This document shows, one piece after another, positions 20,864 to 48,830 of a stretch of 64,000 nucleotides of DNA (position 1 is the first letter of the stretch; each line of letters starts with the position of its first letter). The position numbers and the translations under genes were made by a program. Source of the DNA: a virus; the IMG/VR virus record IMGVR_UViG_3300025423_000001, positions 1-64,000 of that record, one strand, 5' to 3'. The notes under the pieces were generated by a model. The model was given only the letters and a program-made list of their open reading frames with translations. It was not told the DNA's origin and ran no database searches.

Positions 20864-21553
20864 ATGTACACAAACTATGAATTTTTCAAGCAAAGGTTAG
20901 CAGCTTTAGGAATAGCTCACTTTCCAATTGATAACAGCCTTACCCCAGAGTTTACTGCGGCTATCACCAGTCTACAAAAAAGTCATGGGTTAGAGCCAGT
21001 AGGCTATATTGGGCCAAAGACACTTGATTTGCTTGTAGCCAATGCCTATCCTGAACTGCCTGCTATTCCTTATGTCCATACTTCTGTACCTGAGCAAGCT
21101 GTGATAGATTACTTAAATAGTGTCCAAGAAACTCCAGAGGTAAAGCGCAGCGCCTACATACTGTGGGCAAATGAAAGTGCGCACGGTAAGAGTGGCATCA
21201 ACGGGAATTACGTAGGTGCCCAGGCAGATGTTGCCCGTTGGCCCAGCCAATTTGATGACACTGTATATGCTACTACCATCAAATGTGAGAACATGACTAG
21301 CAACCCTCGGAGGTTTCTTGTATTCAATAGCTGGCAACTGGGTATAGAATTCTTGATAAACCGGGTGCAAAGCCGGGGCCTCTTCATAGGTGGCCACGCA
21401 CACCCGTATAGCAATATGGACGTAGATGATGTGGAAGAGTTTGCCAAGGCATACTGGGATGAGTGGGTGGAAGGCGACCATAGTGACCCTCCTGCTGCAG
21501 AAGTAGCAGACATTGTTGGGCTGTATAAAAAGGCTGCAGCTTATTTTCCGTAA
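20864..21553 (+). CDS. Endolysin: peptidoglycan-binding domain plus glucosaminidase(GH73)-like domain
   Basis: AITSLQKSHGLEPVGYIGPKT is a PG_binding_1-like motif; NESAHGKS..GNYVG..FLVFNSW resembles the GH73 catalytic pattern. Confidence 0.7.
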   Translation: MYTNYEFFKQRLAALGIAHFPIDNSLTPEFTAAITSLQKSHGLEPVGYIGPKTLDLLVANAYPELPAIPYVHTSVPEQAVIDYLNSVQETPEVKRSAYILWANESAHGKSGINGNYVGAQADVARWPSQFDDTVYATTIKCENMTSNPRRFLVFNSWQLGIEFLINRVQSRGLFIGGHAHPYSNMDVDDVEEFAKAYWDEWVEGDHSDPPAAEVADIVGLYKKAAAYFP

Positions 21554-21571
21554 ACTCTAAACACACATACC

Positions 21572-21886
21572 ATGTCACAGAACCATCCTCGTACAAGAGA
21601 ACAACCTCAACAACAAGACGCACAGCCTACAGTTACACATGCAGTGTACCGATGGGCAACCCCTATCCTATTAGCTATCATTGGCTGGTTGGCAGGTAAC
21701 AAGCTAAACACAATGGATGCCAAACTCGACTCGGCGCTTACAACCCTTTACAGCTTACAGTCTCGCGTTGCTGTTCTGGAAACCAAGCAAACTGAGGACG
21801 AAGGCACATTAGCAGGTCACGAACAAAGGATAACATCATTCCTTGAGCAATACCCGCTAGACCGGGAACGCAGGAGAATCAAGTAA
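21572..21886 (+). CDS. Single-TM coiled-coil lysis-cassette protein (holin/antiholin-like)
   Basis: TM WATPILLAIIGWLAG followed by coiled coil; follows endolysin. Confidence 0.5.
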   Translation: MSQNHPRTREQPQQQDAQPTVTHAVYRWATPILLAIIGWLAGNKLNTMDAKLDSALTTLYSLQSRVAVLETKQTEDEGTLAGHEQRITSFLEQYPLDRERRRIK

Positions 21887-21892
21887 TACCCC

Positions 21893-23017
21893 CTATGAAC
21901 CCACCGAAAAGGCTTTCAGGCTATCCTGGAGCCTTTTTTCATGCCCAGTGGCGTAGTATCTGCTGGTAATGGCTGTGGATGTATGACCAGCTGATGCAGC
22001 AGCCATCTCAATCCCGAGACTCTCGCTGATGAGGTCTGTGTACAAATGTTTGAGGCTATAACAATCCTGCCTCACTCCCATCTTCTCCTTCACATGGGTA
22101 TGCCAACGCCTGACTATTTGCTCGTAGCGAATAGGCCGTTTCCCCGGCACCAGCCCTTCTGAGAAAAGATAATCCCCCTGCATATCCATCAACTCCTTCC
22201 ACAGCCCAAGCACATCACCAGCTATCACTTTGTGCACTTCACGCCGGTAACTTCCCTTGCGTATAGTGACAGTAAAGAGCTGCTCTTCAAGCTGAACATG
22301 CTCCTTTCTTACAGCCAACAGCTCTGTGATGCGTGCACCCGAACAGAAGAAGATATGCAGGAAACGGTAGAAGACGTAGTTGTTCTGCTTCAACCTCGAC
22401 GCTATCTCTTTCCATTCAGCCAGGGTCATCACTTCACGCATACGGTGGATAGTTTTCTTAGGCTCTACACTGTGTACAGGATTAGATGGTATCATTTCCA
22501 TCTCAAGTAGGTAGCGGAACAGGATGGACAGGTACGTCCTGTACTGGTTATAGGCCCGGTCGGAAAATTTTACTGAGAGGCCGGCACACCCATCCAACAT
22601 CTGCTTGACATGCTTACGTGTAACCAAATGCACCGGCATGTCCAACCGCTGGTTAGCTATCGACTGCTTGACGCGTCCTACCACATGCTTTAACCCCGCC
22701 CGGGTGCCATGTGTCACAGTTACTTTCTTCCAAGCCATATCCAATGCTTCACTTAACAGCCTGTCAACTCGTCTGGCCCTGGTTCTAAGGCCAGCTTCTA
22801 CGTCTTTCAGGAGCCTCACGGTTACCTGCTGTCTTTCCTCACGACTCTTGTACTTATTCATGCCTTTGACGATTACGAGTTTACCCGTAGCATCTCCTTC
22901 CGCATGAAAACGGTAGTGGATATACCATGGTGTCATTGGGGCATTTGCTGACTGCCAGTTTGAAGGGTGGACAAGGATAGTAGTGAATGAGTCCCCATTT
23001 GGAAGGTAGTTTCGCAC
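21893..23017 (-). CDS. int: Tyrosine integrase/recombinase
   Basis: SGARITELL (catalytic R), IRKG (K), YSLKH, AGHTS and RYY (catalytic Y); SAM-like AYNQYRTYLSILFRYL..NP. Confidence 0.9.
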   Translation of the reverse strand: MRNYLPNGDSFTTILVHPSNWQSANAPMTPWYIHYRFHAEGDATGKLVIVKGMNKYKSREERQQVTVRLLKDVEAGLRTRARRVDRLLSEALDMAWKKVTVTHGTRAGLKHVVGRVKQSIANQRLDMPVHLVTRKHVKQMLDGCAGLSVKFSDRAYNQYRTYLSILFRYLLEMEMIPSNPVHSVEPKKTIHRMREVMTLAEWKEIASRLKQNNYVFYRFLHIFFCSGARITELLAVRKEHVQLEEQLFTVTIRKGSYRREVHKVIAGDVLGLWKELMDMQGDYLFSEGLVPGKRPIRYEQIVRRWHTHVKEKMGVRQDCYSLKHLYTDLISESLGIEMAAASAGHTSTAITSRYYATGHEKRLQDSLKAFSVGS

Positions 23018-23077
23018 TGGAATTAACGATTACGTTAACGGTTGTTATCTAATCCACTGGTTATCAGAGGTGTGCCT

Positions 23078-23120
23078 TTAGTTTGGGAAACTAATGCTCT
23101 ACCAACTGAGCTACTTCCGC
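23078..23120 (-). pseudogene. 5' half of tRNA-Gly(CCC) (att core)
   Basis: GCGGAAG TA GCTC AGTTGGTA GAGC A TTAGT TTCCCAA ACTAA: acceptor 5' strand, D arm and anticodon arm. No T arm or 3' acceptor strand follows. Confidence 0.9.
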
Positions 23121-23130
23121 TTGTGGGGTG

Positions 23131-23163
23131 CGAATGTACAACAAGGGGCCGTAACCCACCAAA
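23131..23163 (-). promoter_or_regulatory. Bacteroidetes sigma70-type promoter upstream of tRNA half and int
   Basis: TTTG (23163-23160), N21, TACATTCG (23138-23131); consensus is TTTG N19-21 TAnnTTTG. Confidence 0.7.
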
Positions 23164-23315
23164 TTGCAACCCACTATCTCGAAAACATACCCTTACATAC
23201 CTGTCAATTTCACTTGCCGTTAACGATTTCGTTAACGAATGTAGGAACCATGCTCCATAGGCTCAAGCTCAAGTTATCCACAGCCCGTGTAGCTTAGAGG
23301 TCTAATACCCCTACT

Positions 23316-23618
23316 ATGTTCAACTTCCTACGTGCATCACTCTCCGATGTAGACGGACAAACGTCTTCCAAGCGTGTAATTGCTTACGCATTGTTGCTTA
23401 TCCTGGGCACCATGGCCATCACTGACACATTTACCATAGCACACTTCAAGGCCGACACTTGGGATGATGTGTTCTATGGCCTGCTTTTGTACGGGGGTAT
23501 GATTACCTCTGAGAAATTCACTAAACGCTCCATCCGTAAAACACCCGATAATGAAACATCTACCAGTAGCACTACTCCTGACAGCGAGTCTGTTGTTCTT
23601 CAGCCTAAGCTCCTGTAA
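23316..23618 (+). CDS. Putative holin
   Basis: SSKR motif followed by two hydrophobic helices; upstream of spanin. Confidence 0.6.
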   Translation: MFNFLRASLSDVDGQTSSKRVIAYALLLILGTMAITDTFTIAHFKADTWDDVFYGLLLYGGMITSEKFTKRSIRKTPDNETSTSSTTPDSESVVLQPKLL

Positions 23619-24102
23619 TTATGCCCGGATATGCGCTGAGAGGTTTCCACCTCACAGCGACACGTCTACTACCGTCCATGACACTCTTGTCTATCATGAC
23701 ACGGATGTAACAAGGCTGGTACCCGTGTACATTCCTTCTGACAGTACAGTAGTGTCTCTGCCTACAAGCTTGCATGACACTGTCTTTTCTGAAAACACTA
23801 AGTACTTGTTTCAGAAAGTCATAGTTCACGACGGTAAGGCCACAGTAGTATGTGCTACAGATAGCTTACAGGCTGTAATAGCTAAGTTGACAGTGAAGCT
23901 TCAGACGCTGGAGAAGATACACGACCAATCTACCACTATTAAGACTACTGTACATATCACCACTAATCACATCCCGAAATGGGTATGGTGGCTGATAACT
24001 ATTAACATAGCCTATTTGGCGTACAAATTCTGGCCATCTTACTCGGGCATACTCGGCACCGGTGTGTCTGCAATCGTAGCTTTATGCAAACGAAAGGTTT
24101 AG
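23551..24102 (+). CDS. Putative unimolecular spanin
   Basis: Lipobox LSSC at residue 22 plus C-terminal TM (KWVWWLITINIAYLAY). Confidence 0.6.
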   Translation: MKHLPVALLLTASLLFFSLSSCNYARICAERFPPHSDTSTTVHDTLVYHDTDVTRLVPVYIPSDSTVVSLPTSLHDTVFSENTKYLFQKVIVHDGKATVVCATDSLQAVIAKLTVKLQTLEKIHDQSTTIKTTVHITTNHIPKWVWWLITINIAYLAYKFWPSYSGILGTGVSAIVALCKRKV

Positions 24103-24350
24103 TCAGCATAGCTAAAGCCTGGGCCAAGTTTATAGAAAGCTCAGAGGCTACAAAGACTCTGATGAAGAGCCGCCTATCTACCTGTGACAGTTGCCCGCAC
24201 AAACGGCAACTTAGCCCTTTTGGCAAATGGGTTATCCTCGCCATCAACAAAGAAAGCTCAACATACTTTTGCGGCCAGTGCGGTTGCCCTTTGGCAGCCA
24301 AAACAGCTACCCCTACAGAAACCTGCCCACTGAACAAGTGGGAACACTAA
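24084..24350 (+). CDS. Small Zn-finger protein (DUF6171-like)
   Basis: RLSTCDSC...CGQCGC...CPLNKW. Confidence 0.6.
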   Translation: MQTKGLVSIAKAWAKFIESSEATKTLMKSRLSTCDSCPHKRQLSPFGKWVILAINKESSTYFCGQCGCPLAAKTATPTETCPLNKWEH

Positions 24351-24401: not shown

Positions 24402-25460
24402 ATGCCTATTAACACACAGCACCAAGCCCATCTACCCGCAGCTCAAATTATGTACGACTCCGGCCTCACTGTCTCTGAAATTGTCCGTAGGCTGAGTAAA
24501 GAACATGGGATAGATACTGACTCGTATGCATTCCAGATGCATCTCTACCGACATCTCAATCGGAGTAAGGTAAAATCAACGGCTCAACGGGATGAAAATC
24601 AGTATGGCACGGATGCTATCAGTACGGATAAGAAGCTGACATCCTTCAGTTACAAAGACATCATCCCATTCATACAAGGGTTGCAGAAAATAAGCAAGCA
24701 GGCTTCCTTTAACCAAGAAAAGGCTGCATGGCGTATCAAGACAGACAAGCCTATTGTGGTGGCCACAGTGGCTGACTTACAGCTCGGCAGTTGGGCTACA
24801 GACTATGACCTGTTCATGCGTGTGACGGATGAGATTATCAACACACCAGACTTGTATGTGTTGCTGTTAGGAGACATCTTGCAGATGGCTATTAAGCTAC
24901 GGGGCGTGCTCGAAGTCTCTGACAACATCATACCACCTAAGCTACAGTACTACTTCCTTGAAAGCTGGTTGCAAGACATCCAATACAAGGTGATAGCCTC
25001 CACATGGGATAACCATTCAGTCATGAGGGAAGAAGCCCAGGCCGGCTACTCCACTTATGCAGCCATATTCGGTAGACATACAATCTACGCAAACGGCATC
25101 TGCCACCTCGACACAATCGTCAATGACATTACATACAAGTGGGCCATCACCCACTTCTTCCGGGGAAAGTCTATGTACAACAAGACACACGCACCGGAAA
25201 GATATTTACGCATGGAATTCCCTGAAGGTGACATAGCCGCACAGGGAGACTTCCATGAGCCAGGCATCTCCAAGTTCTGGGAAAGGCAGAAAGAGTATGT
25301 GGCCATTGTCACAGGCTCCATCCAAACTAACTCCGGTTACGCCAAGCGTTTCTTCAGCCTGACCACCGCCCCCGTCTACCCTTGTGTTGTACTGCAGCCA
25401 GACCAGAAGATGGCCACGCCATACTGGAGTGTGAAAGAGTATTTGGCCAACAAGCGGTAA
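24402..25460 (+). CDS. Calcineurin-like metallophosphoesterase with N-terminal HTH
   Basis: ADLQLG, LLGD, WDNH, ITH and GDFH motifs. Confidence 0.7.
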   Translation: MPINTQHQAHLPAAQIMYDSGLTVSEIVRRLSKEHGIDTDSYAFQMHLYRHLNRSKVKSTAQRDENQYGTDAISTDKKLTSFSYKDIIPFIQGLQKISKQASFNQEKAAWRIKTDKPIVVATVADLQLGSWATDYDLFMRVTDEIINTPDLYVLLLGDILQMAIKLRGVLEVSDNIIPPKLQYYFLESWLQDIQYKVIASTWDNHSVMREEAQAGYSTYAAIFGRHTIYANGICHLDTIVNDITYKWAITHFFRGKSMYNKTHAPERYLRMEFPEGDIAAQGDFHEPGISKFWERQKEYVAIVTGSIQTNSGYAKRFFSLTTAPVYPCVVLQPDQKMATPYWSVKEYLANKR

Positions 25461-27001: not shown

Positions 27002-27251
27002 GGATTAATTTCCAGTTTGTGTCATTGCCAAGTTTTTCCTGCCTTACCAGCCCGAGATTATGCAACACCTTCAATGAGCTGAGTATAAGCCTGTGTGAGT
27101 ATGTTGCATTCACCATTTGAGGGGCGGTGCGTTCTTCTTGCTCTAAGCAGCGAAGAATGTAGGTTGTGACAGGCTTGGACAAATGGTTGTATATGAAAGC
27201 GGCTTTTGCGTAGGCTGCTAACGGAATCTTACTTGCCTGTTGTTTTTCCAT
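26955..27251 (-). CDS. Small winged-HTH protein
   Basis: Likely start MEKQQ; ArsR-like SLKVLHNLGLVRQEK. Confidence 0.45.
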   Translation of the reverse strand: MEKQQASKIPLAAYAKAAFIYNHLSKPVTTYILRCLEQEERTAPQMVNATYSHRLILSSLKVLHNLGLVRQEKLGNDTNWKLIHGKLELFNNTAARLL

Positions 27252-27633
27252 GGGCTTTCGTTTGTCGTTCATTGGAGGTTTTGCTTCTATGGCAAGTCTT
27301 GCAGAGTACTTGAAAAGCTGCAGGGTCTTCTGCTGTAAGCCGCTGGATAAAGGGTGCAATGTCAGCCCAATCACGTAACGAGCCACAAGGTATGAGATGG
27401 TCAATCTCTACGGCTGCCCGGGCAAACCATTTCCTGCACTTCGAGCATTGGTATTCCCATTTCAGCCTTCGGTTGGCATTTCGTGATGGACGTTTTGCAG
27501 CCTCCAGGGCCTGCTTCATGGGTATCCAGAAACGGAAACTCTTTCTTAAGGCACTTCTCAGCTTGCCCCAGTATTCAGCCTCAGTCATGGTACCACCGTT
27601 ACGGGTTTTAAGTACTCTTGGTTTCGTTGCCAT
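27229..27633 (-). CDS. HNH endonuclease
   Basis: CSKC...EIDHLIP...QVLCKTCHRSKT. Confidence 0.8.
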   Translation of the reverse strand: MATKPRVLKTRNGGTMTEAEYWGKLRSALRKSFRFWIPMKQALEAAKRPSRNANRRLKWEYQCSKCRKWFARAAVEIDHLIPCGSLRDWADIAPFIQRLTAEDPAAFQVLCKTCHRSKTSNERQTKAHGKTTGK

Positions 27634-28321: not shown

Positions 28322-29470
28322 CAACTTGTTATCGCTGTGGCTTTTTATCCTCAGCTTCTTATACTTCTTAAGTTTGTATAAGTTCGGCGTACATTTTCAA
28401 CCAGTTCACTCTGGCTGTCAAGCACTCTTGGAGATATTATAGTCTGCTATGCAGTTTCAATCTCTACGCTCTACGCAGTTCAGCCTCTTTTAACTTTCTG
28501 AATTTGCTCGGTATTAGTGCCCCTTGAAATATCTTATCGTGCTTACGTTGTAGGTAAAAATGAGCGTCTTTATAAAGGAATTTGTGTAAAAGCTTAAATG
28601 CTTCCATTTTTCTGACTAAAATCTTATAAAGTTTATCCTCTCTGGTTTCCCAAGAAGTTTCTATCTGATTATGATTAAGCACTTGTTCAAGCTGTTTTAG
28701 GAACACAATACTGTTTCCACAGATACCAGCAACTCTATAACAACTTCCGTCTTTAGCTATACCTACAGAACACCATCCATCTCCATCAAATACTCCACGT
28801 ATGTAGTGGCGCAAAAGTTCTGCTGGAATTGGAGGCATATTTATTTCACAATAGGACTTTCGATTACAAAGACCCAATGCTTGTAAAGCTTTTACGATTT
28901 CTTTACAGTTACAGCTAAAGATGAAGGACTTTGCAGTACCTTGAATCAATTCTAATTCTGGGCCAATATTATCTCTAAACAAGTTTAAGATATAGACATC
29001 ATTACTGGTTACTTGAATAGTTTTGTCATCTTTAGCTATTGAGCCGTCTGCTGTAAAAAATCCAAGCAGGTAAGCTTTTAACTCATTATCTATTACATCA
29101 AAGAAATCACGATATTTCAAAGAACTAGTATCTTTTAGCCGCCACGATTTTCTGTGAACTATAACAGGTAAGGAATATGCCTTAAAGTGGTGTATAAAGA
29201 ACTTACGAGTTTTGCTATATTTTTCAGTCAATTGCTCGAGAGTCATCCCATTTAAGTGCTCTTCATACCACTCTGTTACTTGCTCTTCTATGGGGCTTAA
29301 TTTGTACCGTGTCTTTACTTTCAAGGAGCCTTTCATAGTTATAAGGATTAGAATACTAATGTATGTACCTAGTAGTCCTTGATTTTATACTGCTATGAAG
29401 CTTAAATACTTTCACCGATTTTGCTTGATGCTTATTACAACATATTACTATGCTGCCGGGCTATACACTA
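28322..29470 (-). mobile_element. Group I intron in rIIB
   Basis: Exon GGGU pairs with intron GCCC (P1, U-G at the splice site); P7 GCGTA/TACGC; S-like AAATGTACGCC; terminal G (..AAGTTG). Removal restores the reading frame. Confidence 0.8.
28464..29336 (-). CDS. Intron-encoded LAGLIDADG homing endonuclease
   Basis: YLLGFFTADG and YIRGVFDGDG motifs; AT-rich. Confidence 0.9.
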   Translation of the reverse strand: MKGSLKVKTRYKLSPIEEQVTEWYEEHLNGMTLEQLTEKYSKTRKFFIHHFKAYSLPVIVHRKSWRLKDTSSLKYRDFFDVIDNELKAYLLGFFTADGSIAKDDKTIQVTSNDVYILNLFRDNIGPELELIQGTAKSFIFSCNCKEIVKALQALGLCNRKSYCEINMPPIPAELLRHYIRGVFDGDGWCSVGIAKDGSCYRVAGICGNSIVFLKQLEQVLNHNQIETSWETREDKLYKILVRKMEAFKLLHKFLYKDAHFYLQRKHDKIFQGALIPSKFRKLKEAELRRA

Positions 29471-48457: not shown

Positions 48458-48487
48458 GAGAAAAACCAAATCAACTGCTTGTGAGAG

Positions 48488-48830
48488 TGGAGGTGGGGGG
48501 AGTCGAACCCCCGTCTTTCCTGCAAAGCCTAATACCGTTCTTACATGCTTAGTACTGCATCACTGCTGCACCGTAATTGGGGCCACACGATTGTGACCGC
48601 TCCACCACCAGCTTTTGAGTGAAACTGGAAACACTGGTTTGTGCCCTGTTGAAGTGCCGGGCTGGCAAGTGATTAGGCTGCGATAGCCTTGTCAGCAGCG
48701 AATGCCATACGGATGATGGCAGCGCCTTCTTGTTGACGTTTGTCGGTTGTTGTTTAGGAGTGGTTTGGCTCTCCCAAGCCTTGCATGTGATACTATTCTG
48801 TTACCTGAAATCAAATCCAAATACACCCCC
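48488..48830 (-). ncRNA. ssrA: tmRNA
   Basis: 5' GGGGGTG pairs with 3' CACCTCC-A giving G3-U70; T arm GGGGGTTCGACTCCCCC; CATGC/GCATG helix; pk1 GGCT/AGCC plus GGAG/CTCC; tag frame ends IAA-stop. Confidence 0.93.

Follow-up and report, generated by a model that had tools for sequence, protein, structure and literature searches.

The window analysed here, the first 64,000 nt (64 kb) of the 87,118-bp virus record IMGVR_UViG_3300025423_000001 from IMG/VR, carries on its minus strand a tyrosine integrase gene, int, and just upstream of it an 80-nt block that is identical to a bacterial locus and holds core promoter sequence together with the 5′ half of a tRNA-Gly(CCC) gene. On the sequence comparisons given below, this site is very probably a phage attachment site (attP) with the 5′ half of that tRNA gene. 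The reading that we prefer, and consider probable, assigns this attP to a freshwater crAss-like phage that is temperate, or was so until recently, and that targets the single tRNA-Gly(CCC) gene of Parafilimonas-like Chitinophagaceae. That the feature is an attP or a very recent former attP of the rare 5′-restoring type is almost certain, and the arrangement suggests an ability to integrate. As judged from the alignments, the predicted attP is the mirror image of the sites of its own integrase family: the orientation of int and the anticodon arm are the same, and the block extends toward the 5′ end and the promoter, not toward the 3′ end.

The record has direct terminal repeats and a CheckV completeness of 100, and the sequencing runs that bear the phage are freshwater metagenomes. 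Its capsid protein matches gp32 of crAss001 (7qof, E 2.4e-11) and, by tblastn, crAss phages (about 30% identity, 95-97% of the query covered); a 3737-aa open reading frame (ORF) matches the virion RNA polymerase of phi14:2 (6vr4, E 8.7e-24) and phrog_16227, and PHROG matches to phage proteins were obtained for portal, terminase and head. By these capsid, portal, terminase and virion RNA polymerase homologues the phage is crAss-like, as the earlier note on this DNA had stated, which is not a formal taxonomic placement.

A host-identical tRNA half-gene upstream of int

Read along the minus strand, the elements follow one another as TTTG, a 21-nt spacer, TACATTCG, a 10-nt leader, tRNA positions 1-47, a 33-nt spacer, an 18-nt motif and int (Table 1). 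The promoter, tRNA fragment and integrase gene that the earlier note had reported for this strand are thus present, in the order it gave. The 43-nt tRNA-Gly(CCC) fragment that it described lies where it was placed (tRNA positions 1-43, 23120-23078, with the anticodon CCC at 23087-23085), and its extent has to be corrected, the host identity being four bases longer and reaching position 47. These 47 nt (23120-23074) comprise the acceptor 5′ strand, the D arm, the anticodon arm and four variable-loop bases. The block as a whole matches host contigs at 80 of 80 bases and spans -33 to +47 of the host locus; the identity stops abruptly at tRNA position 47, 9 nt beyond the anticodon loop, and this block end (23074) lies 57 nt upstream of the int start (23017).

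Table 1. Position of int and of the putative attachment-site elements in the window
Feature	Position	Strand	Remarks
80-nt block identical to host attB	23074-23153	-	15 nt of promoter spacer, -7 box, 10-nt leader, tRNA-Gly(CCC) 1-47
Anticodon loop TTCCCAA, predicted crossover (overlap) region	23083-23089	-	bordered by the 5-bp anticodon stem arms
Phage-specific spacer with two GATAAC words	23041-23073	-	kept between both phages and different from the host in alignments
int-proximal 18-nt motif CGTTAACGNNNTCGTTAA	23023-23040	-	candidate arm-type or accessory-protein site
int-distal 18-nt motif CGTTAACGNNNTCGTTAA	23218-23237	both	nearly palindromic
Tyrosine integrase gene int, 374 aa, GTG start	21893-23017	-	ORF; PF00589, phrog_1
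Very likely -7 box TACATTCG of the tRNA gene	23131-23138	-	inside the identical block; at -18 in both metagenome-assembled genomes and both phages
Phage-specific -33-like TTTG	23160-23163	-	21 nt upstream of the -7 box

A 64-nt exact query, running from the -7 box through tRNA position 46, was matched in full by two metagenome-assembled genomes (MAGs) titled uncultured Parafilimonas sp. (G001 and G002), in both of which an intact tRNA-Gly(CCC) gene lies amid ordinary host genes, that is, as an unoccupied bacterial attachment site (attB). The matching host tRNA that the earlier note had predicted therefore exists. Contigs of the co-occurring host without a single difference to the 80-nt block were recovered from two of the four sequencing runs (X15 record 15, 1238 nt at a depth of 79, and X10 records 10 and 11), and they run on into the host tRNA 3′ half and host upstream DNA. 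With 80 of 80 bases identical in these contigs and the 64-nt exact match in the two MAGs, a chance match is excluded. The tRNA-Gly(CCC) gene is single-copy at such similarity in all five Parafilimonas genomes searched; three of the five have a small number of differences from the phage in the promoter, the D loop or the anticodon stem, and the phage thus fits the G001/G002 type.

The same arrangement was found in a sister phage of 91 kb from another metagenome, which also has direct terminal repeats and the same layout and whose Int and capsid proteins are 76% and 93% identical to those of the window phage. The two phages share 66 identical nt, from the -7 box to two bases past position 46, with both flanks diverged and an indel; the stretch from TACATTCG through AAGGC shows no variation across the two phages and the two MAGs. 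The attP arrangement thus recurs in two independent assemblies, which bears on the idea that the window is an assembly chimera of phage and host reads joined at a tRNA-like stretch. Contigs built at k=31 do break inside the block in all four runs, and no piece among those listed spans the whole stretch. Nevertheless, the two X1 phage contigs share exactly 30 nt inside the block, the sole competing branch there is a sequencing-adapter tip and host flank is absent; together with the independent 91-kb assembly and the direct terminal repeats of both records, this makes a chimera highly improbable. Among the X15 contigs, record 18 (139 nt) agrees exactly with the phage side of attP over 103 nt (23147-23249); beyond this match, which begins just within the block, 18 letters at either end find no counterpart, and the contig may come from a variant phage whose core is different.

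We read the tRNA portion as a truncated gene and not as an odd tRNA, since the T arm is missing and the acceptor pairing is poorer in the sister phage than in the window phage. ARAGORN called no tRNA at 23074-23120 and none elsewhere in the window. That the fragment works as an aberrant tRNA or tRNA-like RNA is hardly credible, even though its RF00005 match (23037-23120) reaches 32.2 bits against a gathering score of 29: this match is obtained with 30 nt skipped at the place of the T arm and with only five of seven acceptor positions paired, the sister phage has not retained the putative 3′ acceptor strand, and the leader fold is no better than those of shuffled sequences (z -0.93, -0.71). The 3′ half of the host tRNA was not found in the window at up to 3 mismatches and has no exact match in the rest of the phage genome, and no complete tRNA was detected in the whole 87-kb genome, where the RF00005 matches are limited to the attP fragment and to the tRNA-like end of a transfer-messenger RNA (tmRNA).

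The block is flanked by two copies of the 18-nt motif CGTTAACGNNNTCGTTAA, which occurs in the 64 kb at these two sites only (0 expected from 100 shuffles); a direct repeat here, D1, is 87% identical. In the sister phage, CGTTAACGNNNTCGTTAA stands at the two equivalent places, the distal one at L004 1033-1052. By analogy, this motif pair has the layout of arm-type or accessory-protein sites about a core, and we regard the two motifs as candidates for such sites.

Int belongs to a family that recombines at the tRNA anticodon loop

The int product matches PF00589 (35.4 bits, cut-off 27.1, residues 197-356), phrog_1 integrase (4e-26) and XerA (5hxy, E 3.5e-4), and its GTG start is at the codon where the sister phage has ATG. 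In a 12-sequence family alignment, R229, K254, Y320-S-L-K323-H324, H345 and Y355 are invariant and all are kept in Int. By this alignment Int is intact with every family-invariant residue present, in agreement with the earlier note, which had called the integrase intact. The family has YSLKH (320-324) where XerA has HVLRH; all 12 sequences agree in this, those of members with clear integration scars among them.

Homologues of Int were detected in 38 of 401 sampled Chitinophagaceae genomes (24-47% identity over matched segments, 31-42% over the full length). A complete co-directional tRNA gene lies directly upstream of int at 17 of the first 24 loci by ARAGORN, and the same layout was recognised by Rfam at four of 13 further-checked loci (the seven ARAGORN misses and six more loci, L031-L036). 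Five relatives were checked for a displaced tRNA repeat, with 60 kb fetched on the island side. Four of them have a direct tRNA repeat 43-50 kb downstream, beginning at linear tRNA position 15, 28, 32 or 33 and extending as far as the 3′ end, and the fifth has none within 60 kb. In two relatives the identity starts at the anticodon loop or 2 nt before it, which pins the crossover of those two there. The sites of these relatives are, as far as the repeats tell, of the canonical anticodon-loop, 3′-restoring type. Islands of this kind, 43-50 kb long and each with an integrase of the family, lie between tRNA-Val or tRNA-His and the displaced 3′ repeat in four Chitinophagaceae genomes (G115:C1, G179:C1, G243:C4 and G324:C17; loci L041-L052).

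In the mechanism that we propose for the window phage, Int, as a member of a Bacteroidota family crossing over at the tRNA anticodon loop, would recombine within the anticodon loop of the block; the crossover is placed there because the displaced repeats in the relatives start at or just before this loop. Elements of the family normally carry the anticodon arm and the 3′ half, so that the rebuilt tRNA stays under the host promoter. In the window phage the restoring segment would be on the opposite side of the crossover: the phage carries the 5′ half with the anticodon arm and, ahead of it, the 10-nt leader, the -7 box and some of the spacer. The int-distal junction would then join phage DNA with the -33 TTTG and the phage -33 to +38 segment to the host 3′ half, giving an intact tRNA gene, and at the int-proximal junction the host promoter and host 5′ half would read through 57 nt into int. 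This is the geometry that the earlier note had foreseen, in which a crossover in the block would rebuild the tRNA gene with its upstream part supplied by the phage, and int would come to lie behind the host promoter and 5′ half.

Integration might also proceed without Int acting at the anticodon loop, by a crossover elsewhere in the 80-nt block or by homologous recombination of the host, and the products would be identical; 80 nt of perfect identity suffices for some RecA-dependent exchange. We consider this quite unlikely, given an intact integrase of an anticodon-loop family 57 nt away and the two relatives whose identity starts at the loop or 2 nt before it.

A copied host promoter precedes the tRNA half and int

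To place TACATTCG among host promoters, the tRNA genes of MAG G001 were surveyed (30 tRNA loci, with two at contig ends, L134 and L136, dropped; one motif judged by eye, with no promoter model). Of the 28 genes, 16 have a TAnnTTnG box in the 60 nt preceding them, and in 12 of these 16 TTTG stands at a spacer of 18-21, most frequently 19 (seven cases). A CACyCC-like stretch often follows the box in G001, and likewise at the phage block. On this comparison, TACATTCG is very likely the -7 element of the tRNA-Gly(CCC) gene. Together with the 10-nt leader and 15 nt of spacer, the -7 box falls within the host-identical block, and the box is therefore a copy of the host promoter and not an invention of the phage. 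At the -33 position, GTTG at a spacing of 20 nt is all that the native Gly(CCC) gene offers, no suitable sequence was seen in the second MAG, and TTTG is missing from the sister phage. The Bacteroidetes promoter TTTG-N21-TACATTCG that the earlier note had described is thus present, but it is not a separate phage promoter: -33 to -1 is a host copy and only the TTTG is phage-specific. A sigma-70 and terminator scan, which models no Bacteroidota promoters, gave no more sites than in shuffled sequences.

The block is the sole recognisable promoter directly upstream of int, and an identical core promoter is already ahead of int in the free phage, so that int is probably under a tRNA-type host promoter in both states. 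The claim in the earlier note that integration newly puts int under the host tRNA promoter is not upheld for this reason. Of the promoter swap it had predicted, the exchange of promoter copies stands by geometry; the rebuilt tRNA would keep its core promoter, the change would be limited to the sequence upstream of about -33, and the regulatory contrast would be weaker than had been claimed.

A more far-reaching proposal, which we hold only tentatively and consider doubtful, is that this lineage flipped its restoring side by means of a captured host tRNA promoter and 5′ half, and that lysogeny moves tRNA-Gly(CCC) to a promoter with a consensus -33 TTTG while the native promoter yields a transcript of the tRNA 5′ half and int. 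If true, carriage of the phage would alter tRNA dosage, int expression would track the activity of the host tRNA promoter, and no lysogeny module of a crAss-like phage would have been defined mechanistically before this one.

Several further sequence observations concern this region. The phage -33 region TTTGGTGGGTTA (23152-23163) has 12 nt identical to the -33 region of another host tRNA gene, L115 (G001:C3, tRNA 2575-2647), and TTTGGTG occurs farther upstream in three other Parafilimonas tRNA-Gly(CCC) genes; the 12-nt identity may reflect a common extended -33 consensus or a remnant of a captured host promoter. A second copy of TACATTCG is located at 23236-23243 (-), in int orientation with TTG 20 nt upstream, and adjoins the int-distal motif; the sister phage has TACTTTCG there. 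This copy might represent another promoter whose transcripts pass through attP, the 18-nt motif serving as operator. Occlusion in the leader RNA, which a 10-nt complement between the int start and the anticodon region had suggested, was rejected: the folds are those already found no better than shuffles, and the pairing is poorer in the sister phage.

Search for integrated copies and the origin of int

A series of results weighs against the preferred reading. Int had no match in six Parafilimonas genomes, no close Int (>42% identity) was present in the 401 sampled Chitinophagaceae genomes, where the best reached 42%, and among 201 relatives of G001 the four Int matches at E<=1e-40 were all 36-39% identical and none close. 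The capsid protein gave no match in the 401 genomes, with a positive control on its own genome that worked. Hybrid contigs of the attL or attR type were not found in the four runs, though attP and attB were both seen and contigs drop rare variants. Neither a repressor nor an excisionase was recognised by PHROG scans among 10 ORFs near int, which did find nucleases and an HNH endonuclease. The K in place of the second catalytic Arg and the Y in place of the His of HxxR are also unfavourable, albeit family-wide and compatible with the islands seen. Finally, a PF00589 gene is present in the sister phage and in none of the four complete and five partial crAss-like relatives examined (capsid 60-65% identical); relatives with a closer capsid (72-84% identity) exist as fragments of 4-40 kb. 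Its lack in these relatives makes int-attP a recent acquisition of a small lineage, and a recently acquired int may not be integrated into the regulation of the phage.

The check for split junctions or prophage homologues that the earlier note had proposed was accordingly negative for hybrid contigs in the four runs and for a close lysogen in the genomes searched; scans of metagenome and viral contigs with Int returned the sister phage alone. We treat the missing integrated copy as an absence of evidence that weighs weakly, because rare variants are lost from contigs and MAGs are the only known representatives of the hosts. None of the observations that the earlier note had named as fatal to its proposal was made outright, and integration itself was not seen.

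These results also bear on the possibility of a relic or of an expression signal taken from the host: the phage would have acquired the block once, for example by imprecise excision, and would now use it to transcribe int alone or for nothing, the block no longer being a working att site. An integrated copy that was found nowhere searched, a block that provides the only promoter recognisable directly ahead of int and the unrecognised repressor and excisionase would all fit such a relic. Against this, a promoter alone needs no 47 tRNA nt that are 100% host-identical in two phages with a 24% difference in Int, the block ends 9 nt past the very loop where the relatives cross over, and the paired unique motifs flank it like arm sites. 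We therefore regard a relic as unlikely, if less so than the other alternatives, and retain the attP of a temperate or recently temperate phage as the probable explanation.

Comparison with known attachment sites

Canonical attP sites of tRNA-targeting tyrosine integrases, with an anticodon-loop sublocation among them, were reportedly described by Williams in 2002. The site in the window resembles the canonical anticodon-loop sites, such as those of the Chitinophagaceae islands at tRNA-Val and tRNA-His, in using an integrase of the same family (31-42% identity), in the position of int, which follows the tRNA sequence directly and in the same orientation, in including the anticodon arm in the block and in a target that would be restored. 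It differs from them in that the phage would restore the 5′ half and upstream promoter sequence, not the 3′ half, and in the predicted outcome of integration, with the complete tRNA gene at the int-distal junction and a truncated 5′ half beside int.

By the usual rule, attP has the tRNA 3′ half and the host promoter is kept (PMC10865867, PMC8371274). Recombination at the 5′-distal part of a tRNA gene with promoter exchange has already been described as a rare class (PMC6563490, PMC8371274), in which the rebuilt tRNA is expressed from the integrase promoter and part of int is maybe expressed from the tRNA promoter, a type seldom met in bacteria (PMC8371274); the Islander configuration filter tolerates a 5′ fragment upstream. 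The 5′-half arrangement is thus not unprecedented, and what is particular here is that it is carried by a crAss-like phage within an otherwise 3′-restoring integrase family.

Among the described systems, archaeal pTN3-like integrases and TKV4-type proviruses come close, since their attB is the tRNA 5′ part, element-borne upstream sequence expresses the rebuilt tRNA and the host tRNA promoter faces element genes. Unlike in the pTN3-like 'suicidal' integrases, the phage attP is outside the int ORF (57 nt upstream) and int would not be split; unlike both, the element is a tailed bacterial crAss-like virus, the host core promoter and not an integrase promoter has been copied, and the element is known here without an integrated copy. 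With the tRNA-dependent lysogeny of actinobacteriophages (PMC10865867) the site shares a tyrosine integrase, an attB overlapping a host tRNA gene and a departure from the 3′-half restoring rule. Those phages share about 10 bp with attB, destroy the tRNA gene and carry a replacement tRNA (PMC10865867), whereas in this phage the shared sequence is 80 nt, the tRNA gene would be rebuilt and a complete tRNA gene of its own is missing.

In its capsid, portal, terminase and giant virion RNA polymerase homologues, and in a genome of 87 kb with terminal repeats, the phage is like crAss001 and phi14:2. It is unlike crAss001 in having an integrase and a host-matched attP, a freshwater habitat and Parafilimonas as its predicted host. 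In the 2018 account of crAss001, no integrase was reported for that phage, crAss-like prophages were stated not to be known, and the group was mostly regarded as non-integrating (PMC6235969), in line with what the earlier note had said of it. A study of the epsilon group of crAss-like phages did not find integrases, and a 2026 mouse catalogue lists integrase in some crAss-like lineages by annotation only (PMC13503771). A description of a crAss-like attP was not found in the literature searched (supplements outside its scope), the one match being on the non-crAss phage BV01.

For an environmental member of a group whose lifestyle is debated, the window thus provides a specific integration site that can be tested, along with Parafilimonas as host genus, and it is a natural case of a flip in target orientation within one integrase family. 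The two tRNA halves appear to be interchangeable as the restoring segment, provided that the promoter is copied into the element as well. Programs that search for prophages by an intact tRNA next to int together with a displaced 3′ fragment would overlook such prophages or place them wrongly.

Other features of the window

The genes flanking int-attP (20864-21553 and 24402-25460) had no match in the four complete int-less relatives at E<=1e-5. Among the neighbours of int-attP (20864-24350), a PF01471 peptidoglycan-binding, endolysin-like gene is on one side and small membrane-protein ORFs on the plus strand are on the other; with attP between these, integration would cut within a row of lysis-like genes. 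An HNH endonuclease (phrog_1985) and an endonuclease (phrog_4645) were recognised by PHROG scans at 27229-27633 (-) and 28464-29336 (-), among early genes. Away from the att site, a complete one-piece tmRNA gene is located at 48485-48830 (-), scoring 72.3 bits against RF00023 (gathering score 47), for which ARAGORN gives a tag of 23 aa ending in AA.

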